Shown: piece by piece, positions 13,680 to 49,998 of the stretch
How the letters are laid out: every line of letters starts with the position of its first letter
Numbering within the stretch: the first letter of the stretch is position 1
Assembly (NCBI GenBank): GCA_040902515.1
Contig: JBBDXB010000002.1
Location: 1 to 49,998, forward strand
Source of the DNA: Patescibacteria group bacterium
GTDB taxonomy: Bacteria; Patescibacteriota; SICC01
Direction: 5' to 3'
Length of the DNA stretch: 49,998 nucleotides
Notes under the pieces: generated by a model
Databases searched by the model: none
What the model was told of the DNA's origin: nothing
What the model saw: the letters and a program-made list of their open reading frames with translations, nothing else
Made by a program: the position numbers and the translations under genes

Positions 13680-14795
13680 CTAGCCGGCGAAGGTCGGCGC
13701 GTCCACCCGGCGCGAGCGGCTGCTGGCGATGCTTTGCAGGATACCCACGGCCAGCAGCAACATCAGGATGCTGGTACCGCCGTAACTGACGAACGGCAGC
13801 GGGATGCCGGTGACCGGCATGATGCCGGTGTTCATGCCGATGTTCACGACGGTCTGGATCAGAACGATCAGCATGATGCCCATCGCCAGCAGATAGCCGA
13901 AGAAGTCATGGGCTCCGCGGGCGATCGCCAGCGAGCGGTAGATCACGACCGCCAACAATCCGAGTAGCAGGAGCGCGCCGAAGAATCCGAGTTCCTCGGC
14001 GATCACCGCGAAGATGAAGTCCGTGTGTTGGATCGGCAGGAAGTTGAGCTGGCTTTGTGAACCGGACCCGAGCGTCCGTCCGAAGATGCCGCCGGACCCG
14101 ACCGCGATCTGCGCCTGCTGGACGTTGTATCCCGCGCCCAGCGGATCGGCCATCGGGTCGATCAGCGTCATGATCCGGCGTTTCTGATAATCCTGCAGCA
14201 GCCACAGCCAGGCCACGGGCAGCAGCGCGGTGACGACTCCTGCGGTCCAGACGAAGAAGCGCTTCGGGAGACCCGCGGCGATCGTCATGCCGAGCCACGT
14301 ACTCATCAGCACCATCGCCGTGCCCAGGTCGGGCTGGGCGGCCACCAGTAGCACGGGAGGCATGGTGTAGGCCAGTGACTTGAAGAACGTCCGTGAGGTA
14401 TCGAGGGTCTTCTGGTGATCGGCGAATACCTTCGCGAGCACGACCACCATCACGAGCTTGGCGAACTCGGACGGCTGGAACTGGAAGAATCCGAGGTCGA
14501 TCCAACGGGTGGCGCCGAGCGCCGAGACGCCGACCAGCTCGACGAGGATCAGGAAGAAGAGCGAGAGCAGGTACAGCGCTCCGGCGGTCCGGCGGAAGAC
14601 CCGGTAGTCGCTGACACCGATCACCGCGACGATGCCGAGTCCCAGTAGGGCGATGAAGAGCTGCTGGACGGCGTCACTGGCACCGCCCGAACCGGCATCG
14701 CCGAACGTGATCGCGAAGATGACCGCGACCGAGAAGGTCAACAGCAGGACCACGGCGGCCTGCAGGAACCAGTCGAAATACCGGATCCGTTCCAT
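13680..14795 (-). CDS. SEDS-family peptidoglycan glycosyltransferase (RodA/FtsW)
   Basis: 371 aa, about 10 TM segments. Conserved ..PSEFAKL.., ..QPDLGTA.., ..GSG.SQ..FLP..HTDFIFA..EELGF.. motifs. Confidence 0.88.
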   Translation of the reverse strand: MERIRYFDWFLQAAVVLLLTFSVAVIFAITFGDAGSGGASDAVQQLFIALLGLGIVAVIGVSDYRVFRRTAGALYLLSLFFLILVELVGVSALGATRWIDLGFFQFQPSEFAKLVMVVVLAKVFADHQKTLDTSRTFFKSLAYTMPPVLLVAAQPDLGTAMVLMSTWLGMTIAAGLPKRFFVWTAGVVTALLPVAWLWLLQDYQKRRIMTLIDPMADPLGAGYNVQQAQIAVGSGGIFGRTLGSGSQSQLNFLPIQHTDFIFAVIAEELGFFGALLLLGLLAVVIYRSLAIARGAHDFFGYLLAMGIMLIVLIQTVVNIGMNTGIMPVTGIPLPFVSYGGTSILMLLLAVGILQSIASSRSRRVDAPTFAG

Positions 14796-17700
14796 CAGGC
14801 GCGCCGCAGTGAGATCGTCAGTGGTAGTCCGGACACCTGCACCCGTTCAGCCTCGGGTCCCGTCTCCTCAAGCGCAAGCGGGCGAGCCAGGGTCTCGTCT
14901 TCGATGAGCCGGCGGTGGGCGTCGAGCGCGCGCACCAGTTCCGGCGCGTCGGTAGCAAGCGTGAGCTTGATCCGGTCATCCACGGACAAGCCGCGGGACT
15001 TCCGAAGCTCCTGGACGTGACGGATCACGTCGCGGGCGTATCCTTCCTGCCTGAGCGCGTCGGTGAGCTCCGTATCGAGCGCGACCACGAAATGCTCGCT
15101 GGAGCATACGGCCAGCTCGCCGCCATGTTCGTAGACGAACTCGACGCCGTCCGGCGGAAGACGATGACCCGCGGCGGTGATGGCGCGGCCCTGCACCCGG
15201 TACTCGCCCTGCTTCAGGGCGCGGATCACCCGCTGGGCCTCCGATCCGAGCGCCGGACCGAGCACCGCCGGCACGGGACGGGGAACCTTCCGGATGAGTT
15301 TCCCTTCCCGCTCGACGAAGCGGACTTCCTTGACGTTCAGTTCCTCGGCGATTATCCGAACAATCTCATTGCTCTTCTTTCGACCGCTGCGGTCGATGAC
15401 ACGGGCCAGTGCCAACGGCTGACGGACCTTAACCCCGGCCTCTCCCCGGGCCGCCAGCCCCAGCCGGACGATCTCCCGGGCGTCAGTCATGGTATGTGCT
15501 AACCGGGCGCCGGCGGGAGTCGTCTTCCCCGCCCGCGGCCAGGTGGCCAGATGCGCGCTCCCGCCGGTAAGTTCCCGGTGGATGTGGTCGGTCAGGAACG
15601 GTACGAATGGCGCTGCCAGACGCGTGAATACGCAGAGCACGTGATGGAGCGTCGCGTACGCCTGGCGTTTGTCGGCGTCGGATTCGCTCTTCCAGAAGCG
15701 CCGCCGGCTGCGGCGGACGTACCAATTCGAGAGATCGTCGAGTACTGCGGAAAGCTCCCGGGAGGCGGCCATCAGGTCGCCCTGCTCGAGCCCGGACGTG
15801 ACCGTCCTGACCGCGCCGTCCATTCGGGCCAGGATCCAGCGGTCCATCAGGTGTCTCGGTGCCCGCGGGCGTCCCGACACCTCCCAGCCGTCGACGCTGG
15901 CATACGTGGCGAGGAATACGTACGTATTGTAGAGCGTCCCCAGGAACGATTGTGACAGCTCGGCTACGTCCCGTTCCGCGAACCGCAGGTCGTCGCCGCG
16001 GACTACCGGCGATTGCACCAGATACAGCCGCATCGCGTCCGCGCCGTACTTCGAGAAAACTTCGCTCGGTTCCGGATAGTTCTTGAGCCGCTTGGACATC
16101 TTCTTGCCGTCCTCCGCCAGGACCAGTCCGGTCGTGACCACCTGCTCGAACGCCCGCGAACCCTGCAGTGCCACGCCAAGCACGTGTAGCGTATAAAACC
16201 ATCCCCGCGTCTGGTCGAGCGCCTCCGCGATGAAGTCGGCGGGATAGCGCTGCGCGAACTCACGGCGATGCTCGAACGGGTAGTGCACCGAGGCGTACGG
16301 CATGCTACCCGATTCGAACCAGCAATCCAGGACGTCCTCGATCCGCCGGGCTTCCTCGCCGCAATCCGGACACGGGAACGTGATACCGTCCACGAACTGC
16401 TTGTGCAGGTCGCGTGGTGCCTTCCCGGAAAGCCGCTTCAGCTCCTCGCGTGACCCGATGACCGTCACGTGGTCGTTGTCACACTTCCAGATCGGAAGCG
16501 GGTTGCCCCAGAAGCGGTTGCGGGAGATCGCCCAGTCGCGGGCGCCTTCCAGCCACTTGCCGAACCGCCCGTCCCGCACGTGGGCCGGCATCCAATCGAT
16601 CTTCCGGTTCTCGGCAAGCAGCTGCCGCTTGACCTTGGTGACCGCGACGAACCAGGAGTCGGTCGTGTAGTTGAGCAGCGGCGTGTCGCAGCGCCAGCAA
16701 TGGGGATAGCTATGTGTGAACCGCTCCTTACGGACCAGCCTTCCCTCCGCCGCAAGGTCGGCGATGACGGCGGCATCCCCCTCCCCATGCGCCTTCATCC
16801 CAACATGGCGTCCGAATTCCTCCGTGAACCGCCCGATGATGTCCACGTGCCGGACGAACGCCGCGCCCTCCCGCTCCCCGATCGCATTGTCCTCCTCACC
16901 GAATGCGGGAGCCACGTGCAGCACGCCGGTCCCGTCCTCGGCCGTCACGGCATCCGACGCGACGACCTCATGGTGCTTCCCGGACAACCCGTCCATCGGG
17001 AACGGCGGTTCGTACCGGCGGCCGACGAGGCTGTCCGCCTTCACGGATTCTCGCACCTCGACATCATCGCCGAATACGGCGGTTACCCGGTCTGCCGCCA
17101 CAACGTAGTACTTTCCGTCGTGACGCACTTTCACATACCCGATCTTCGGCCCGACGGCCAGCAGCACGTTTCCCGGTAGCGTCCACGGGGTCGTCGTCCA
17201 GGCCACCAGTGCCGTATCCGGGTCGTCAGCGAGCGGAAACGCCACGTAGACCGATTCATCGACCCGGTCCCGATATCCCTGCGTGACTTCGAAATTCGAG
17301 AGCGGCGTGGCGCAGCGCGGGCAGATGTGCATCGCCTTGCGGCCCTCGTAGAGCAGCCCTTTCTCCCAAAGCGTCTTCACGACCCACCAGATGGATTCCA
17401 TGTACTGCGGATCCATCGTCTTGTAGTCGTTCTCGAAGTCGATCCAGCGCCCGAGGCGCTCCGTCGTCTTCTGCCACTCCTTGGTATGCCGGAGTACGAT
17501 CGATCGACAGGCGTCATTGAAGGTGGCGACGCCCATCTTGAGGATGTCGGGCCGTCCCTTGATGCCACGTTCCTTCTCCAGCTCATACTCGACCGGGAGG
17601 CCGTGGCAGTCCCAGCCGAACCGGCGCTCGACGTACCGGCCCTGCATCGTCCGGAACCGCGGGACGATGTCCTTGATCGTCCCCTGCAGCAGATGGCCGT

Positions 17701-17878
17701 AGTGCGGCAGGCCCGTCGCGAACGGCGGACCGTCGTAGAACGTGAACCGCTTACCCTTCTCGGTCCGTTGCAGGGATTTCCGGAACGTCTGCTCCCGCTT
17801 CCAAAGCCGCAGGATCCGCTCTTCCAGCTTCGGGAATGACGTGACCGGTTTCGGGGTGGAAAGTCGTTTCTTCTCCAT
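14795..17878 (-). CDS. ileS: Isoleucyl-tRNA synthetase (type 2, long C-terminal domain)
   Basis: 1027 aa. HIGH region PHYGHLLQG, KMSKS region KKMSKRLKNYP, CP1 editing domain. ATG at 17878. Confidence 0.96.
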   Translation of the reverse strand: MEKKRLSTPKPVTSFPKLEERILRLWKREQTFRKSLQRTEKGKRFTFYDGPPFATGLPHYGHLLQGTIKDIVPRFRTMQGRYVERRFGWDCHGLPVEYELEKERGIKGRPDILKMGVATFNDACRSIVLRHTKEWQKTTERLGRWIDFENDYKTMDPQYMESIWWVVKTLWEKGLLYEGRKAMHICPRCATPLSNFEVTQGYRDRVDESVYVAFPLADDPDTALVAWTTTPWTLPGNVLLAVGPKIGYVKVRHDGKYYVVAADRVTAVFGDDVEVRESVKADSLVGRRYEPPFPMDGLSGKHHEVVASDAVTAEDGTGVLHVAPAFGEEDNAIGEREGAAFVRHVDIIGRFTEEFGRHVGMKAHGEGDAAVIADLAAEGRLVRKERFTHSYPHCWRCDTPLLNYTTDSWFVAVTKVKRQLLAENRKIDWMPAHVRDGRFGKWLEGARDWAISRNRFWGNPLPIWKCDNDHVTVIGSREELKRLSGKAPRDLHKQFVDGITFPCPDCGEEARRIEDVLDCWFESGSMPYASVHYPFEHRREFAQRYPADFIAEALDQTRGWFYTLHVLGVALQGSRAFEQVVTTGLVLAEDGKKMSKRLKNYPEPSEVFSKYGADAMRLYLVQSPVVRGDDLRFAERDVAELSQSFLGTLYNTYVFLATYASVDGWEVSGRPRAPRHLMDRWILARMDGAVRTVTSGLEQGDLMAASRELSAVLDDLSNWYVRRSRRRFWKSESDADKRQAYATLHHVLCVFTRLAAPFVPFLTDHIHRELTGGSAHLATWPRAGKTTPAGARLAHTMTDAREIVRLGLAARGEAGVKVRQPLALARVIDRSGRKKSNEIVRIIAEELNVKEVRFVEREGKLIRKVPRPVPAVLGPALGSEAQRVIRALKQGEYRVQGRAITAAGHRLPPDGVEFVYEHGGELAVCSSEHFVVALDTELTDALRQEGYARDVIRHVQELRKSRGLSVDDRIKLTLATDAPELVRALDAHRRLIEDETLARPLALEETGPEAERVQVSGLPLTISLRRA

Positions 17879-18060
17879 GGGATGACCTCGCGGTTGCGAG
17901 GACCCTGCCGGGCGGTACCACCTCGGTTCCCTCCAAACGAGGGCGCTTCGTTGACGGCGATGACGGGCCGCGGCCGTCCGGGTCTACTGGCTCGTCCGCG
18001 GACGAGGGTTCTTCCGGAAGCATCTCCCGGTGATGGCCGGGGTCAGGCGCTTCTCTAGGC
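17879..18060 (-). promoter_or_regulatory. T-box riboswitch (tRNA-Ile sensing leader of ileS), translational SD-sequestering type
   Basis: Minus-strand RNA contains:
- a T-box sequence AACCGAGGUGGUACCGCCC (17929..17910)
- an antisequestrator GAGG-[UGGUACC]-GCCC-GGCA-GGGU-CCUC
- a competing CCUCGC-AACC-GCGAGG hairpin that buries the SD GAGG, 7 nt before the AUG, with no U-tract
- a preceding CCCUC-GUUUG-GAGGG (Stem III-like) hairpin
- a short 5' hairpin GAAGC..CCCGG-CCAUCA-CCGGG..GCUUC presenting AUC+A (18034..18031)
- an AGAGA motif at about 18051..18055. Confidence 0.82.
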
Positions 18061-18070
18061 TCAGGATAAT

Positions 18071-18625
18071 CTATTTCCGTTTCCGGGTCGAACGCCGCGT
18101 GGAGCCTTTCGTCTCGAGCACCACCCATTCGTTCTTGTCGATCACCGAGTTGGGGATGACGTGGACCCTCCCGTCCGGCGTCCGGATGCGCGTCTTCCGG
18201 GCCGTCATGCCCACCACGTAGCCGACGGTCCCCTTCTCCCCCGCCCGTACCTTCGCTCCCGGTTGGAAGTTCCGGTCGGCGGCCAGGGACAGTCCCGACA
18301 AGGTGTCCGCCACCAGCGGCGCGATCCCCGTCGAGACGAAGAGGGCCACGATCACCGACGAGCCGGTCACCGCCACCAGGACGTCGTCCAGGCCGAGCTT
18401 CTGGAGCAGTACCAGAAAGAGGACCACCCAGAGAAATGCGCGCGTCAGGGAGTACAGGAGCATTGCCAGTGCCTTCGGAACGTTGCTCGCCCGGAGCACC
18501 GAGGCGAGGATGAAGATCGCCAGCTCCACCAGCAGATAACCGATCAGGAGCGTGATCAGGAACTCCGGCAATCGGTCCCAGAAGTTCTGGCCGACGATCT
18601 CCAGTCTCGAGACGAACGCTTCCAT
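18071..18625 (-). CDS. Small-conductance mechanosensitive channel family protein, truncated 184-aa form
   Basis: Three TM segments, then the MscS pore/beta-domain signature ..IAPLVADTLSGLSLAADRNFQPGAKVRAGE..GYVVGMTARKTRIRTPDGRVHVIPNSV... The large C-terminal vestibule domain is mostly missing. TAGGAT lies 8 nt before ATG 18625. Confidence 0.82.
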   Translation of the reverse strand: MEAFVSRLEIVGQNFWDRLPEFLITLLIGYLLVELAIFILASVLRASNVPKALAMLLYSLTRAFLWVVLFLVLLQKLGLDDVLVAVTGSSVIVALFVSTGIAPLVADTLSGLSLAADRNFQPGAKVRAGEKGTVGYVVGMTARKTRIRTPDGRVHVIPNSVIDKNEWVVLETKGSTRRSTRKRK

Positions 18626-18763
18626 ACCCGTCTATCCTACCCGTCCGTCCATCGGGAAGTCCAAGCAAGGGTTCGTCCGGATCACCGCCGGAGAGGGCCG
18701 GATCGTCGTCCTCGTCGGACTCCGGAAGCAGGGCCACCTCGATCGCCGCCAATTGGTCTGCGC

Positions 18764-19033
18764 TCAGCCGAGTGTCCGGATCGCCAAGCTCGTGAGGATC
18801 TGCAGTACCACCAGGGCTAAGATCGGCGAGAAGTCGATCCCAACCATCGGCGGCAGGATTCGCTGGAACGGCTTCAGGATCGGTTCGGTCACCTCCATCA
18901 GGAACCGGCCCAACGCGCCGCTCGGATGCGGATTGATCCAGCTCATCAGCACCCTGATGATGATCAGGATCTGCAGCGTGAAGCTCAGGATCTCGATGAA
19001 CTGGACCAGGAACATCCGCGTCATGGTTTCCAT
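18764..19033 (-). CDS. yggT: YggT/Ycf19-family small membrane protein
   Basis: Start moved to ATG 19033 (METMTRMFLVQFIEILSFTLQILIIIRVLMSWINP...PILKPFQRILPP..GIDFSPILALVVL), 89 aa with 2 TM. The upstream part of ORF 18764..19135 is Trp/Arg-rich junk. Confidence 0.8.
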   Translation of the reverse strand: METMTRMFLVQFIEILSFTLQILIIIRVLMSWINPHPSGALGRFLMEVTEPILKPFQRILPPMVGIDFSPILALVVLQILTSLAIRTLG

Positions 19034-19802
19034 CTTCCCTTGCCCGCCGGTCGGTTGCAATCGGGCGGACTGCCGGATCCGGCTCCGCCGGAGCTGCTTC
19101 CGACTCACTGACGGCCAGCGCCACCCAGGGGTCATCCGCGCCGATATCCCTTCGCCGCAGGGCGATTTCCGCGGCCAGCCGGCGGTCCAGCGGCTTCCGC
19201 TGAGCGCGGAGCCGGACCAGGAGCGTTGCCAGGTCTACCGGCAGCGCGGCGGGCGCCACGTCCGGATGTCTGTCGCCGTCTTCCGGCACCGTGACATCCT
19301 GCGGCAGGTGGTCCGGTCCGGAATCGTCCGGGAACAGGCCGGGGTGACGCTCGCTCCGGCGCGTCGGGGGTCGCTCGGAACGGGTGTCGGCGTGAGCCCG
19401 AGGAGGGGTTTCCGGCCGGTGGTGCCGGTCGGGCGATGTCCCGCCGCCCCGCGGAGGCTCATCGTCCCGTTCCTCGTCCTTACCCCGCCGGATCTTTGAC
19501 AGGATCTCGGACCGCTTGCCCATCGGATCCCGCGCGAATTCGGCCAGGTCCGTCTCGAGGTCGCCGTCGTAGTAGGCCCCCGGTTCCGCGAGCAAAGTGA
19601 ACGCCTCCGCCTGGGTGTCCTCGCGCAGTCCGGGAATTTCCGCGACGCTACCCCAGAATTGCCCCGGGTCCCGGACCTCGAGGTTACTGCTTCGGATATT
19701 CCGGACGATGACCTCGCGGTCGGCTCCCGCAAGCGGCAATCCGGCGATCAACTCCTCTTTCGAAGCGGTGTGTAAGGTTTCTGTTTCAGGACTGATTGGC
19801 AT
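19034..19802 (-). CDS. Hypothetical acidic/Pro-rich protein, first gene after the cobalamin riboswitch; 3' end unresolved (no in-frame stop until 17751)
   Basis: ATG 19802 lies 16 nt after the riboswitch terminator. Third positions are GC-rich and residue composition is balanced (MPISPETETLHTASKEELIAGLPLAGADREVIVRNIRSSNLEVRDPGQFWGSVAEIPGLRED..). The coding signal fades where the frame enters yggT (about 19033). The end coordinate is where the coding signal stops, not a stop codon. Confidence 0.4.
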
Positions 19803-19818
19803 ATGTGGTTGTTTGATT

Positions 19819-19841
19819 AAAAAACGCGCCATCAGGGCGCG
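19819..19841 (-). terminator. Intrinsic terminator, expression platform of the cobalamin riboswitch (and only visible terminator after nrdJ)
   Basis: Minus strand: CGCGCC-CUGAU-GGCGCG followed by UUUUUU (plus-strand a19819..a19824). An alternative CAGGG-AAUCGCG-CCCUG helix overlaps its 5' arm. Confidence 0.75.
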
Positions 19842-19990
19842 ATTCCCTGACCTATCGACCGTAGGTCGGAACATGTCGCGGACGAACCGGTACTCTGGCT
19901 TACCTCGCGCCCGTCAGGGCGCTCGGATCACAGTGGCGGGACCGCGGCCGATTCTCACGGCGCTTCCCCGGCTCCATCCGTTTCCATCAA
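19842..19990 (-). promoter_or_regulatory. Cobalamin (B12) riboswitch aptamer
   Basis: Minus strand: GGAAACGGAUGGAGCC-GGGGAA(19969..19964)-GCGCC-GUGAGAAUC(19958..19950)-GGCCGC-GGUCCCGCCACUGU(19943..19930)-GAUCCGA-GCGCCC-UGAC-GGGCGC-GAGGUA-AGCCAGAGUACCGG(19900..19887)-UUCGUCCGCGACAUGUUCC. This matches the conserved core and the B12 box of the cobalamin riboswitch family, with a P1-like closing helix. Confidence 0.8.
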
Positions 19991-20019
19991 GGGTTATTAA
20001 AAGGACTGCTCGGGCAGGG

Positions 20020-22407
20020 TCAGCCGCACGCGGAGTAGCCGCAGGTATGGCAGACCTTGCACCCGGACGCGAACTCGAGCGGGCCGCCGCAGTCGGGGCA
20101 AATCCCGGCAAGGTTGGTGGCGTCCTGCTGGGACGCTTCCGCGGCCCCGGCGATGGCCTGGGCCTTGGCGTCGACTTCCGCTGCCTGGGCCTTGGCGTCT
20201 TCCGGTAACGCCGACTGCTGCTCAGCGCCACCAGTCTCCGGAAGTTCCAGCTTGGGGTAGAGGTAATCCTCGATCGTCTTGCCGATCGCGTCGGCCACGG
20301 ACGTCACCTTCCGGTCGCCGAATCCGTAGGGTTGGTCGGTGATGCCCCGGAGCGATTTGATGATCAGCCGCGGCGCCACACCGGCCCGGAGGCTGTGCGA
20401 AATCAGGCGGCAGATCGCCTCGGTCATGGAGGCGCCCAGGCCGCCGGCCTTGCCAAGCATCGCGAACACTTCGAGCAGATTACCGTTCTCGTCGGTGTTC
20501 ATGGTGACGTACATCTTGCCGTAGGCGGTCATCTGGCGTACGGTCACGCCCTTCAGCTTGCCGGGACGTGGCGCCAGGATGCCACGGGCCATCTCCCCCG
20601 GTTTCGCATCGCCGGCAGCCTCCGCCGGCTGCTCTTCTTTCTTCTCGTCGGAGACGCGCGTCAGCACCGCGTCACGGCTGCCGTCGCGATAGAACGTGAC
20701 GCCCTTGAGGCCCATGTCGTAGGCGGCCTCATACAGCTCCTTCACCTGCTCGACCGTGTAGGAGTTCGGCGCGTTCACGGTCTTCGAGATCGAACTGTCG
20801 GTGTAATCCTGGATCTTGGCCTGTACCTTCACGTGGTCCATCGGCGTCAGGTCGTTCGAGGTCACGAAATAATCGGGTATGTTGCCGGCCTTGGCATCCT
20901 CCGGATGCTCGTCTTTCCAGGCCTTGAAGAGCGGATGGTAGAGGATGTGCTCGCCGGTCCGGTCGGTACGCTTCATCGCGAAGTCGTAGACCGGCTCGAT
21001 GCCGGAGGACACGCCGGAGAGCAGCGAGGTCGTCCCGGTGGGGGCCTGGGTCAGGACGACCGCGTTGCGGATACCGTACGTCGCGATCTTGTCCTGGACC
21101 TCTTTCGGGAGCCGTTTGATGAACCAGCCCTGCATGTACTTGCTGCGATCGAACATCGGGAACGGCGCCTTCTCCTTGGCGATTTCCGCCGATTCGTCGT
21201 AAGCGGCGTCACGGATGGTCTTGTAGATCTTGTCGATCACGTCCAACGATTTGTCGGAACCGTAGCGGAGCTTCATCTTGATCATCGCGTCACCAAGACC
21301 CATCGTGCCGAGACCGGTGCGGCGGGTGCCCATCTGCTGCTCCTCGTTCTCCTTGAAGAAGTAGTAGTTGGCATCCACGACGTTGTCCAGCGCGCGGATC
21401 GCGACGCGGGAATGGTCGGCTAGGGACTCGTAGTCCATCTCGCCCTCTTCGGTAACAAACGCGGAGAGGTTGAGCGCGCCGAGATTGCAGACCGCCCAAG
21501 CACCGAGCGGCTGTTCGCCGCAGGGGTTGGTGGAGATCAGCTGCTCGTAGTACCAGGTGTTGCTGCGCTTGTTCGAGCGCTCCATGAAGTGCAGTCCCGG
21601 CTCGGCGGACGCGTGGGCGCTCTCGCAGATCTTGCTCCAGACTTCCTTGGCCTTGACCGTCTTGTAGTGCTTGCCTTCCCACTTGAGCTCCCAGTCACCG
21701 TCCTCCTTGACTGCCTTCATGAAGCCGTCGGAGATGCAGACGGAGATGTTCGCACCGAGCAGGCGCTTGAGGTCACGCTTGGCGCCGATGAACTCTTCCA
21801 CGTCCGGGTGGTCGTCGTTGAGCATCAGCATCAGCGCACCGCGCCGGCTCCCGCCCTGTTGGATCACCTCATGGGTGGCGACCGAATAGAGCTCACCCCA
21901 CGGGATCGGACCCGAGCTGGTGCCGTTAACCGTCTTGATGTGGCTGCCGCGCGGACGGAGTGAACTGAGGTTCACGCCGACGCCGCCGGCCCGGCACATG
22001 ATCTCGGTCATCGCCTTGAGATTATCGAGGATGCCGTCCCGCGAATCCGTCGGTGACGGGATCACGAAGCAGTTATAGAACGTCACTTGGTGTCCGGTCC
22101 CGGCTCCGGAAAGGATCCGACCGGCCGGCACGAACTTGAAACCCTCCATCGCCTTGTAGAACCGCTGCTCCCAGTGCTTCCGCTTGGCCGGCTCCTCCAC
22201 GAGGGCGAGCGCCTTGGCGACGCGGCCCCACATCTGCTCGGGGTACGCTTCCATCGGGTTGCCCTCCTGGTCCTTCCAGGCGTAGCGGTCCAAGAATACC
22301 TTCTTCCGGATGCCGTCGAGCTCGGTACCCTTCTCCACCGGCACGGGCCGTTTCAACGCGGCCTGCTTTAGGTTTTTCGGGGGTTTTTGAATGGTGGCTT
22401 CGGGCAC
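20020..22407 (-). CDS. nrdJ: Adenosylcobalamin-dependent (class II) ribonucleotide reductase
   Basis: 795 aa. N-terminal ..KKVFLDRYAWKD.. and the core ..NPCGEQPL.. are typical of class II RNR. Cys-rich C-terminal tail CPDCGGPLEFASGCKVCHTCGYSACG. GTG start at 22407 with SD AAAGGAGCATC. Confidence 0.95.
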   Translation of the reverse strand: MPEATIQKPPKNLKQAALKRPVPVEKGTELDGIRKKVFLDRYAWKDQEGNPMEAYPEQMWGRVAKALALVEEPAKRKHWEQRFYKAMEGFKFVPAGRILSGAGTGHQVTFYNCFVIPSPTDSRDGILDNLKAMTEIMCRAGGVGVNLSSLRPRGSHIKTVNGTSSGPIPWGELYSVATHEVIQQGGSRRGALMLMLNDDHPDVEEFIGAKRDLKRLLGANISVCISDGFMKAVKEDGDWELKWEGKHYKTVKAKEVWSKICESAHASAEPGLHFMERSNKRSNTWYYEQLISTNPCGEQPLGAWAVCNLGALNLSAFVTEEGEMDYESLADHSRVAIRALDNVVDANYYFFKENEEQQMGTRRTGLGTMGLGDAMIKMKLRYGSDKSLDVIDKIYKTIRDAAYDESAEIAKEKAPFPMFDRSKYMQGWFIKRLPKEVQDKIATYGIRNAVVLTQAPTGTTSLLSGVSSGIEPVYDFAMKRTDRTGEHILYHPLFKAWKDEHPEDAKAGNIPDYFVTSNDLTPMDHVKVQAKIQDYTDSSISKTVNAPNSYTVEQVKELYEAAYDMGLKGVTFYRDGSRDAVLTRVSDEKKEEQPAEAAGDAKPGEMARGILAPRPGKLKGVTVRQMTAYGKMYVTMNTDENGNLLEVFAMLGKAGGLGASMTEAICRLISHSLRAGVAPRLIIKSLRGITDQPYGFGDRKVTSVADAIGKTIEDYLYPKLELPETGGAEQQSALPEDAKAQAAEVDAKAQAIAGAAEASQQDATNLAGICPDCGGPLEFASGCKVCHTCGYSACG

Positions 22408-22432: not shown

Positions 22433-22939
22433 TTATGCCAATTGCCGGTCCCGCGAACGGGAATCCTGCTTACCCAAGACTTTTTCTTGCTTGCCGAGGA
22501 CTTTCTTGATTTCCGCGTCCAGCTCCGAAAGGTCTGCAAACTCACGATACACACTGGCGAAACGGATGTATGCGATGTGGTCGAGCTTCTTGAGGTGCCG
22601 CATGACCGCTTCGCCGATGCGCCGGACCGCCACTTCGGCTTCACCCTGGCTCCGGATCTCCTGTTCGGACCGGATTATCACCCGTTCCAGGGCCGTCTCG
22701 GAAACAGGACGTTTCTCGCAAGCCCGGCGGATTCCGCGGGCCAGTTTCTCACGTGAGAAAGGCTCACGGTGGCCGTCTTTCTTCACGACGCTGAGCAGCG
22801 GGGTCTCGATGCGTTCGTAGGTCGTGAAGCGGAATCCGCAACGTTCGCACTCCCGGCGGCGGCGGATCGCCGGCTCCGCCTCTACGTCGCGTGAGTCAAT
22901 CACGCGAAGCGAATCGGTTTGGCACTGTGGACATTCCAT
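22433..22939 (-). CDS. nrdR: Transcriptional repressor NrdR (Zn-ribbon + ATP-cone)
   Basis: 168 aa. MECPQCQTDSLRVIDSRD..RRRRECERCGFRFTTYERIE followed by an ATP-cone. The C-terminal tail contains a tandem KVLGKQ(E/D) duplication. Confidence 0.95.
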   Translation of the reverse strand: MECPQCQTDSLRVIDSRDVEAEPAIRRRRECERCGFRFTTYERIETPLLSVVKKDGHREPFSREKLARGIRRACEKRPVSETALERVIIRSEQEIRSQGEAEVAVRRIGEAVMRHLKKLDHIAYIRFASVYREFADLSELDAEIKKVLGKQEKVLGKQDSRSRDRQLA

Positions 22940-23002: not shown

Positions 23003-23050
23003 CCACTAGATATAGGATAGCCTGCTCACACTAGCTACCATATTTAGCGT
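23003..23050. promoter_or_regulatory. Two tandem NrdR boxes upstream of nrdR-nrdJ
   Basis: CCACTAGATATAGGAT (23003..23018) and CTACCATATTTAGCGT (23035..23050) match the remembered palindromic consensus acaCwAtATaTwGtgt at 12/16 and 11/16. Centre-to-centre spacing is 32 bp (three helical turns). A candidate promoter TTGACC (23057..23052), 18 nt, TAGTGT (23033..23028) straddles box 2. Confidence 0.55.
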
Positions 23051-23157
23051 GGGTCAAGGATGTGAACGGCTTGGTTGTTCGTCCATCTAGCTTGTCCGGG
23101 TACTTTCGCGACTAACTGAACAACCGTTCTAAATACCCGTTCATGCGAAACGGACGG

Positions 23158-23192
23158 GGAAAAGAAGAACACCGCCATCCGGGGCGGTGTTC
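23158..23192 (-). terminator. Intrinsic terminator after ftsZ
   Basis: Minus strand: GAACACCGCC-CCGGAU-GGCGGUGUUC (10-bp stem) followed by UUCUUUUCC. Begins 21 nt after the ftsZ stop. Confidence 0.7.
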
Positions 23193-49432: not shown

Positions 49433-49549
49433 CGCCGGTGACGACCTACTCTCCCGAGCCCTAGCGGCCCAGTACCATCGGCGCTGCGGGGCTTAACGGC
49501 CGTGTTCGGAATGGGAACGGGTGTGGCCCCCGCGCTGGAGTCACCAGCG
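49433..49549 (-). rRNA. rrf: 5S ribosomal RNA
   Basis: Reverse complement reads GCUGGUGACUCCAGCGCGGGGGCCACACCCGUUCCCAUUCCGAACACGGCCGUUAAGCCCCGCAGCGCCGAUGGUACUGGGCCGCUAGGGCUCGGGAGAGUAGGUCGUCACCGGC. It shows the universal CCGAACACGG..GUUAAGC..GCGCCGAUGGUACU..GGGAGAGUAGG pattern and a terminal helix I pairing. Ends are +/-3 nt. Confidence 0.9.
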
Positions 49550-49645
49550 TGCTGACGACAAGTTCGGTTAACAGACCGGCACTGCTGCCGGCACTGTCAG
49601 TCAAGGCTACGCGAATGCAAGCACTCGCGAAAGGATAAATACATG

Positions 49646-49998
<353 letters not shown>

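Follow-up and report, generated by a model that had tools for sequence, protein, structure and literature searches.

The 49,998-nucleotide (nt) stretch of contig JBBDXB010000002.1 from a Patescibacteria group bacterium, hereafter called the window, carries on its minus strand a cobalamin riboswitch directly downstream of nrdJ, the gene for a B12-dependent ribonucleotide reductase (RNR). According to the preferred explanation, to which a probability of about 0.7 is given, this element is a B12-OFF terminator within the nrdRJ operon and gates a hidden overlapping gene, open reading frame (ORF) A, which would be read on into when B12 is scarce. With B12 bound, the terminator at 19841..19819 would form and the transcript would stop right after nrdJ. 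Without B12, a CAGGG segment would pair with the 5' arm of the terminator and RNA polymerase would continue. The gene gated directly would be ORF A and not the three-gene membrane module (an ORF, YggT and mini-MscS) put forward in the initial annotation of this region. Translation of ORF A would continue in the -1 frame through yggT, the following spacer and, mostly, mscS, and the product would be an acidic, probably disordered protein of 550-680 amino acids (aa). Both the response to the ligand and its direction are predictions made from the sequence. The features concerned are listed below.

20020..22407, minus strand: nrdJ, adenosylcobalamin-dependent class II RNR (Pfam, TSCPD domain; TIGR02504, 570 bits against a cut-off of 400)
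19868..19996, minus strand: cobalamin riboswitch aptamer (RF00174 match, orthologous matches in 8 relatives, covariation)
19849..19867, minus strand: platform hairpin GACCUA-CGGUCGA-UAGGUC (covarying stem, near-invariant loop; 98% paired, 3 compensatory pairs)
19845..19849, minus strand: CAGGG, proposed 5' half of the antiterminator, able to pair with CCCUG (19836..19832), a segment shared in part with the terminator's 5' arm
19819..19841, minus strand: intrinsic terminator CGCGCC-CUGAU-GGCGCG followed by U6 (consensus scan; 6 GC pairs, loop of 5)
17751..19802, minus strand: ORF A, or long ORF, 683 codons plus stop; unique part 19802..19034
18764..19033, minus strand: yggT (89 aa, 2 transmembrane (TM) segments), nested in the long ORF in another frame (PF02325)
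18626..18763, minus strand: yggT-mscS spacer, coding in the long-ORF frame only, as judged by pN/pS (defined below)
18071..18625, minus strand: gene of a mini-MscS-like channel (184 aa), overprinted by the long ORF (PF00924)

Ten nrdJ loci were compared, namely the window and L001-L005, L007, L008, L011 and L012, together with three relatives carrying a class I RNR at the same locus (L006 and L010 among them). L001 and L002 are two metagenome-assembled genomes retrieved with ORF A peptides, and nine further loci were obtained through homologues of the mini-MscS protein. The source labels of the relatives are Patescibacteria or Saccharibacteria. All ten nrdJ loci display the same gene order, ftsA-ftsZ-nrdR-nrdJ, then an interval of 1-1.6 kb, then yggT-mscS-ileS-ftsW.

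The riboswitch and its expression platform

The whole window was scanned with the Rfam covariance models, for which the gathering scores (GA) are 31.5 for RF00174, 50 for RF01482 and 93 for RF00230. Three matches were returned across the window: 23S ribosomal RNA (rRNA), 5S rRNA and RF00174, the latter at 19996..19868 (-) with 33.1 bits and an E value of 8.8e-5 for the whole window. The initial annotation had predicted such a minus-strand hit after nrdJ. The element is a genuine cobalamin riboswitch of family RF00174 and clan CL00101. This call is certain because the relatives score higher at the same position and because the structure covaries, the score of the window alone being marginal. 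RF00174 reaches 42.7 bits in L001, 42.9 in L002, 50.0 in L003, 39.4 in L004, 43.3 in L011 and 46.6 in L012; in L007 and L008 the best model is the sister family RF01482, with 43-46 bits, below its GA. A match to the cobalamin clan is found directly 3' of nrdJ in nine of the ten nrdJ loci. The aptamer starts 24 nt 3' of the nrdJ stop codon (20022..20020) in the window and 0 nt from it in L004.

All the core motifs quoted in the initial annotation, GGGGAA, GUGAGAAUC, GGUCCCGCCACUGU and AGCCAGAGUACCGG as well as the internal GCGCCC-UGAC-GGGCGC hairpin, are present in the window. GGGAA, GUGAGAAUC, GGUCCCGCCACUGU and the B12 box AGCCAG(A/G)(G/A)UACCGG are nearly invariant across the nine loci bearing the aptamer. 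The aptamer of the window is of a short form, with the P6 region reduced to an 18-nt hairpin. Covariation was evaluated on an alignment of these nine sequences using the pairs of P1/P3, P4, P5 and the platform hairpin, with shuffled alignments (n=500) and slid structures as controls. Paired cells amount to 91.8%, compared with 81.4% in the shuffles, none of which reaches the observed value, and with 24-40% in the slid controls. Double-sided changes are observed in 13 pairs. For P1/P3 they affect eight of nine pairs, and P4 is 100% paired with 2 compensatory pairs.

Downstream of P1, the platform hairpin is followed by a G-rich segment and by the terminator with its U-tract. The GACCUA-N7-UAGGUC hairpin, the terminator and the ATG at 19802 described in the initial annotation are all in place, and the hairpin and terminator are conserved. 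The stem of the hairpin varies in a compensatory manner (GACGUA/UACGUC in L008, GACCCA/UGGGUC in L011, CCCUA/UAGGG in L012) around a CGGUCGA loop that is almost constant across the loci and common to metE riboswitches. The platform hairpin is a candidate kissing-loop hairpin of the P13/L13 type, whose putative partner would be loop L5 (GGUCCC). A complementarity of the CGGUCGA loop with the 3' strand of P4 (UCGGCCG) was considered as well; it is absent from L007, L012 and the metE riboswitches and is probably a coincidence. All ten nrdJ loci possess the terminator, and in L003 its stem carries a compensatory change (CACGCC/GGCGUG).

The G-rich segment and the 5' arm of the terminator may form a pairing that excludes the terminator. 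Reading each genome by eye, the pairs are CAGGG/CCCUG in the window, CCAGG/CCUGG in L007, CUCGG/CCGAG in L008 and GGGAAGGCG/CGCCUUCCC in L012, and the GGG of CAGGG is invariant in the five closest genomes. A mutually exclusive pairing is possible in all nine aptamer loci, the sequences differing and the design being kept, which agrees with the ON/OFF platform described initially. This putative antiterminator is the predicted minimum-energy fold in L007 alone.

The direction of the switch is suggested by a search of metagenomes with a DNA pattern, which returned the hairpin CCUA-CGGUCGA-UAGG-GGGA with a terminator upstream of metE in unrelated bacteria (L013-L015, L017). These metE leaders display the same aptamer core, then the platform hairpin CCUA-CGGUCGA-UAGG, GGGA and the terminator. 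metE is the classic B12-repressed gene. Because the same hairpin and terminator precede it, the platform at the nrdJ loci reads, by analogy, as a standard OFF-type cobalamin platform. The bacteria with the metE riboswitches (L013 773..857, L014, L015 and L017) have a GC content of 64-67%. A related element lies upstream of a CobU/CobP-like gene in L016. The riboswitch pattern scan of metagenomes brought no new member of the clade save L018, which is identical to L008 around the match.

One locus, L005, a close relative of L004, is devoid of the aptamer core. Its P1 5' strand (GACGAGTGGTGCCGG) is joined almost directly to the terminator (L005 5755..5826), which is kept in the form GCGCC-TCTAT-GGCGC-A-T5, and ORF A, yggT and mscS are intact.

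ORF A and its overlap with yggT and mscS

ORF A begins at the ATG at 19802, located 16 nt past the U-tract, and an AUG is found 6-16 nt past the U-tract in all ten loci; no Shine-Dalgarno (SD) sequence precedes ORF A. It is a real, fast-evolving and clade-specific orphan gene under purifying selection. In the comparison with L002, substitutions are distributed as 46/59/105 over codon positions 1/2/3 and the three indels are all in frame. The ratio of the proportions of nonsynonymous (pN) and synonymous (pS) differences is 0.34-0.42, and 0.18-0.37 over the first 115 codons, which make up the N-domain. Overall identity falls to about 22% among the ten genomes, to which an M(x)SPETxT start, an EPGxYYDGD motif and an LLxRLRAxR helix are common. 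The layout consists of a small helical N-domain, an acidic, proline-rich linker and the conserved LLxRLRAxR helix. Neither a signal peptide nor a TM segment could be read from the sequence, and ORF A looks cytoplasmic and largely disordered. Between L004 (5905..6621) and L005 (5827..6630), pN of ORF A is 0.55 and pN/pS 0.80, for an ileS pN of 0.08; the frame is open for more than 600 codons in both despite this fast divergence.

No match to ORF A was obtained in Pfam, NCBIfam, PADLOC or a PDB profile search, nor among 5.8 billion protein clusters or 1.84 billion representatives, an exhaustive phmmer search included. Homologue searches with the single sequence and with a 10-member profile brought nothing useful, the profile giving a single match, P0029, and a scan of metagenomes with ORF A peptides gave nothing. 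The AlphaFold2 model built from the single sequence has a predicted local distance difference test score of 55, and the best Foldseek match against the PDB has an E value of 1.3. Two assignments were dropped: the resemblance of the N-domain to a ComEA-like helix-hairpin-helix was an impression gained by eye that no tool supported, and an identity with SepF or DivIVA, considered since ORF A occupies the cluster position of SepF, found neither a Pfam match nor an N-terminal amphipathic helix. Gene callers skip ORF A in five loci, use the wrong frame in L005 and, in L012, call the long ORF instead of yggT. The family is missed among the 5.8 billion clusters because it overlaps two conserved genes.

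The other two genes of the putative module are readily identified. YggT matches PF02325 with 71.9 bits against a cut-off of 27 (6e-20), and the mini-MscS protein matches PF00924 over residues 104-162 with 38.6 bits against 20.2 (1e-9). Pfam and NCBIfam thus confirm the initial assignments of both, as well as those of nrdR and the B12-dependent nrdJ. The mini-MscS protein lacks the C-terminal alpha/beta vestibule, ending about 20 residues past the beta-domain, and scores only 18-25 bits against the MscS equivalogs of NCBIfam, whose cut-offs are 321-596; its relatives measure 173-205 aa. The view that the genes behind the switch lie outside the classical B12 regulon also holds, as ORF A is without matches and neither YggT nor MscS is a known B12 protein.

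To describe three separate genes is incomplete, in that ORF A overprints yggT and mscS and has no stop of its own before 17751. Indeed, no in-frame stop belonging to ORF A is found in any of the ten genomes. In the window, the long ORF, read in the -1 frame, extends over yggT, the spacer, mscS and the ileS leader and 127 nt into ileS, with dual coding over two complete conserved genes for 825 nt. It crosses yggT in all ten nrdJ loci and mscS also in eight, ending at the mscS start in L008 and 58 nt into mscS in L012.

The open frame was examined by resampling synonymous codons from each genome's own usage, a procedure giving observed/expected stop ratios of 0.56-1.33 on nine control genes. In the six genomes forming the test set for overprinted mscS, no stop is present in the read-through frame for 23.4 expected, whereas the four non-overprinted copies (ORF A absent or ending earlier) contain 19 for 16.7 expected. 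Overprinted yggT, tested in eight genomes, has 0 stops against 5.9 expected, and non-overprinted yggT 2 against 2.3. The -1 frame of mscS contains 9 stops in the class I relative L006. In L007, whose GC content is 53%, mscS has 0 stops against 8 expected, and the frequency of T at third codon positions is 0.07 in mscS compared with 0.22 in its other genes. The overlap persists among genomes in which the identity between mscS proteins is only about 50%.

The spacer between the two genes and the synonymous divergence of mscS provide further evidence. For the spacer, the long-ORF frame gives a pN/pS of 0.26-0.44, and the two remaining frames give 0.94-1.66. In genomes where the ORF runs on, the spacer measures 138, 63, 87, 78, 96 or 81 nt, always a multiple of 3; in L008, where the ORF ends, it measures 256 nt. 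Measured against ileS and ftsW, pS of mscS drops by about 20%, and does so only in pairs with both copies overprinted (ratio 0.78 against 0.94-0.96). Stop depletion tracking the overprinting, the coding signature of the spacer and the reduced mscS pS together indicate that the frame is kept open by selection and that the spacer is read as protein. The whole ORF would presumably be translated as one polypeptide. Where it crosses both genes, its tail is acidic, with a net charge of -22 to -45, rich in proline and glycine and poor in hydrophobic residues. A missing stop due to sequencing error is ruled out by ten independent assemblies. A programmed frameshift producing an ORF A-YggT fusion is unneeded and leaves the downstream open frame unexplained.

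The distribution of these genes separates them into two groups. The arrangement of riboswitch, ORF A, yggT and mscS, whose recurrence in related genomes the initial annotation had proposed to check, is found in nine of the ten nrdJ loci; L005 departs from it by the loss of its aptamer. In the three class I relatives, nrdA and nrdB occupy the same position, yggT starts 7-30 nt after nrdB, and both the riboswitch and ORF A are missing in all three. ORF A is therefore present in 10/10 nrdJ loci versus 0/3 class I loci. The class I relative L006 is nearest to the nrdJ locus L007 (71% identity for ileS, 62% for mscS), and the class I state seems, from these values, to be nested among the nrdJ loci. 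In L010 (288..1276), nrdB is called as two ORFs of 198 and 131 aa, which may reflect a frameshift or pseudogene, or else an error of assembly. ORF A and the riboswitch are associated with nrdJ, and yggT and mscS depend on neither: they are not riboswitch-dependent because they are kept in L005 and in the class I relatives. A functional link of ORF A and the riboswitch to nrdJ is suggestive.

Operon context and weighing of the explanations

The remaining features of the locus are given below.

22433..22939, minus strand: nrdR, repressor of RNR genes (Pfam Zn_ribbon_NrdR and ATP-cone)
23003..23066, minus strand: promoter-like site TTCACA-18-TATGGT (23066..23037; consensus scan), overlapped by two NrdR-box-like 16-mers
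19994..20000, minus strand: TTAATAA motif between the nrdJ stop and P1 (TTAAYAA in relatives; 10/10 nrdJ loci)
17895..18079, minus strand: short T-box-like ileS leader with AUC specifier and GGUGGUACCGCC core, through which the long ORF reads

The promoter-like site is likely, from its sequence, to be the start of the nrdR-nrdJ transcription unit. The two NrdR-box-like 16-mers start at 23050 and 23018, 32 bp apart, and match the literature consensus at 11/16 and 12/16 positions; most relatives have similar sites ahead of nrdR, and a terminator-like hairpin lies behind ftsZ at about 23160..23192 (-). Consensus and box scans detected no promoter-like or NrdR-box-like site near the riboswitch, and the consensus promoter scan from nrdJ to the aptamer gave none. 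A CTGACC/TAATAA pair considered as -35 and -10 elements between nrdJ and the aptamer was rejected, its spacing ranging from 0 to 28 nt among relatives. The simplest reading is a single operon in which nrdR, nrdJ, the switch and ORF A would be co-transcribed, because a promoter-like site and NrdR-box-like sequences lie upstream of nrdR, none was detected at the riboswitch, and the nrdJ stop of L004 abuts the leader. Without a separate promoter, ORF A would be made once NrdR has released the RNR operon and B12, which NrdJ needs as cofactor, is missing. A TTAAYAA(A)C motif is found in all ten nrdJ loci, the aptamer-less L005 included; in L004 it coincides in part with the nrdJ stop, and in L012 about 170 nt separate it from P1 further downstream. 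It may be a promoter element, a processing site or something else.

On the other side of mscS, the ileS leader scores 21.1 bits against RF00230 in the window and 39.5 in L007, far below the GA of this model. It displays a specifier hairpin, CCGG-CCAUCA-CCGG, with the isoleucine codon AUC; this hairpin and the GGUGGUACCGCC core are conserved in six loci. The ileS SD sequence is located within a CCUCGC..GCGAGG hairpin, and the leader would fit among the short translational ileS T-boxes of Actinobacteria. The ileS gene itself (14795..17878, -) diverges unusually between the clade of the window and L003-L005, with a pN of 0.27, for values of 0.04-0.11 in ftsA, ftsZ and nrdJ, which hints at a separate history by replacement or transfer. 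At the window edge (49433..49998, -) are located a 5S rRNA gene and the 3' end of a 23S rRNA gene.

Three other explanations were weighed. The corrinoid function proposed initially, in which the riboswitch represses an ORF, YggT and mini-MscS module importing or handling corrinoids for the B12-dependent RNR, draws on the established fact that riboswitch-controlled genes are often B12 transporters, on the B12 dependence of the sole RNR in view and on the absence from the 50-kb window of any known B12 transporter. No B12 gene besides nrdJ is found in the window. Patescibacteria and Saccharibacteria have reduced genomes, and the relatives bearing these labels would need imported B12. This function is nonetheless very improbable, since the class I relatives, which have no riboswitch, still carry the yggT-mscS pair immediately behind nrdB, L005 has lost the aptamer and retained the genes, and no B12-related family matches the proteins of the block in Pfam, NCBIfam or further homology searches. 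As noted, ORF A shows neither signal peptide nor TM segment, and yggT is in its usual place in the division cluster, between ftsZ and ileS. The cluster from ftsA-ftsZ to ileS-ftsW is made of division and housekeeping genes, an outcome that the initial annotation itself had named as speaking against the module. Its more conservative alternative, that the element serves nrdR-nrdJ alone as a B12-conditional operon terminator, with incidental read-through and ORF A as a neutral passenger, fares somewhat better and is incorporated in part in the preferred explanation. The short distance from the nrdJ stop to the aptamer, the terminator retained alone in L005 and the lack of a promoter-like site between nrdJ and the aptamer are all in line with it. 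As a complete account it is unlikely: ending a transcript needs no ligand sensor, ORF A, which evolves under purifying selection, starts close behind the U-tract in every one of the ten loci, the frame is actively held open for 150-430 more codons, and the co-inheritance of ORF A, which vanishes along with nrdJ and the riboswitch, is left unexplained.

The long ORF could also be a by-product of composition, namely of a high GC content at third codon positions and of T-rich second positions in membrane-protein codons, in which case ORF A would be short, either terminated in some unrecognised way or untranslated past yggT. Chance open runs in the -1 frame do exist in these genomes (416 codons in ileS of L005, 331 in ftsW), the within-gene permutation restricted to the window gives a P of about 0.04, and the tail sequence is weakly constrained. 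Such a by-product is quite improbable in view of the calibrated resampling, of mscS stops that are depleted only under overprinting, of an effect persisting at 53% GC in L007, and of a spacer that codes in exactly the frame of the long ORF and keeps a length divisible by 3 where the ORF continues.

A number of observations weigh against the preferred explanation of a B12-OFF terminator gating ORF A. The RF00174 score of the window barely exceeds the threshold, and its antiterminator comprises just 5 bp and is not the minimum-energy fold predicted. ORF A is kept in L005 despite the loss of the aptamer, and the joint loss of the adjacent nrdJ, riboswitch and ORF A in class I relatives may represent one replacement event; the lineages compared are moreover not statistically independent. 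A separate promoter is possible, either within nrdJ or where the conserved TTAAYAA motif lies, and the 230-nt spacer of L012 leaves room for one between nrdJ and the aptamer. The first open-frame test within the window gave P values of about 0.003-0.04 and became convincing only after relatives and controls were added. As the amino-acid sequence of the long-ORF tail within yggT and mscS is weakly constrained, the act of translation, or the mere absence of stops, may matter rather than the sequence of the tail. Finally, ORF A is without homologue, family or confident fold. A role in the response to B12 shortage or to NrdJ failure is proposed with low confidence, from the regulatory logic and the co-occurrence with nrdJ. 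The more specific proposal, that ORF A yields one polypeptide of 550-680 aa acting as a B12-starvation effector that links failure of deoxynucleotide supply to the overlapped division and envelope genes, is tentative and rather doubtful at present.

Relation to known systems and significance

The wiring of this riboswitch, placed after nrdJ and before an orphan gene and not before a transporter or a B12-independent substitute, is unusual. Riboswitches of B12-independent isozymes follow the same logic, the downstream gene being off when B12 is present. In Streptomyces, which has nrdRJ and nrdABS, a cobalamin riboswitch precedes the B12-independent RNR genes, and the nrdAB(S) leaders, like the present locus, are tied to RNR biology and to control by NrdR. 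The isozyme riboswitches precede the B12-independent substitute and gate enzymes, whereas here the switch lies downstream of the gene for the B12-dependent enzyme and the gated gene is an orphan without enzyme-like features. In Listeria and Enterococcus, B12 riboswitches determine how long the regulatory RNAs Rli55/EutX and AspocR become. In those systems as well, a B12 aptamer and a terminator control read-through into an element that is not a transporter, biosynthesis or isozyme gene; their output is a non-coding RNA, in contrast to the protein-coding ORF under purifying selection found here. A cobalamin riboswitch in front of a B12-independent RNR is also reported, in PMC12528414, for the 5' untranslated region of nrdAB in Pseudomonas aeruginosa.

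Long overlapping genes, of which bacteria and phages offer examples, have been reported in the same species, with olg1 and olg2 measuring 957 and 1536 nt (PMC8850804). As in the present case, these are long ORFs in another frame of annotated genes that were missed by gene callers and for which the evidence consists of open-frame statistics and selection tests. They are antisense within one gene, unlike the long ORF of the window, which lies on the same strand in the -1 frame and spans two whole genes, a spacer and an RNA leader. With respect to the surroundings, ylmG/yggT of Firmicutes and Actinobacteria is part of the division (dcw) cluster, where it lies between ftsZ and ileS. The present locus resembles this cluster by the position of yggT, with ftsA upstream and ftsW/rodA downstream, and differs from it in that sepF and divIVA are not recognisable and that an RNR operon, the riboswitch, ORF A and mini-MscS stand in those positions. 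A literature search found no paper linking cobalamin riboswitches with Patescibacteria or Saccharibacteria, or with YggT.

The main new result is a hidden overlapping gene that is probably gated by the riboswitch. The locus places a B12 riboswitch in bacteria labelled Patescibacteria or Saccharibacteria and adds a gene family almost wholly missed by standard annotation. The loci also form a natural test set for the maintenance of an overlap, consisting of ten genomes with the overlap, four mscS copies without it and one aptamer deletion. If ORF A is indeed translated as one polypeptide and acts as a B12-starvation effector, its overlap would rank among the longest known between same-strand genes of cellular organisms, one to which gene callers are blind, and the effector would be made only with the NrdR-controlled operon on and the NrdJ cofactor missing, in bacteria unable to make B12. 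Should ORF A indeed answer B12 shortage, it would offer a handle on how host-dependent bacteria cope with the loss of a cofactor obtained from outside.

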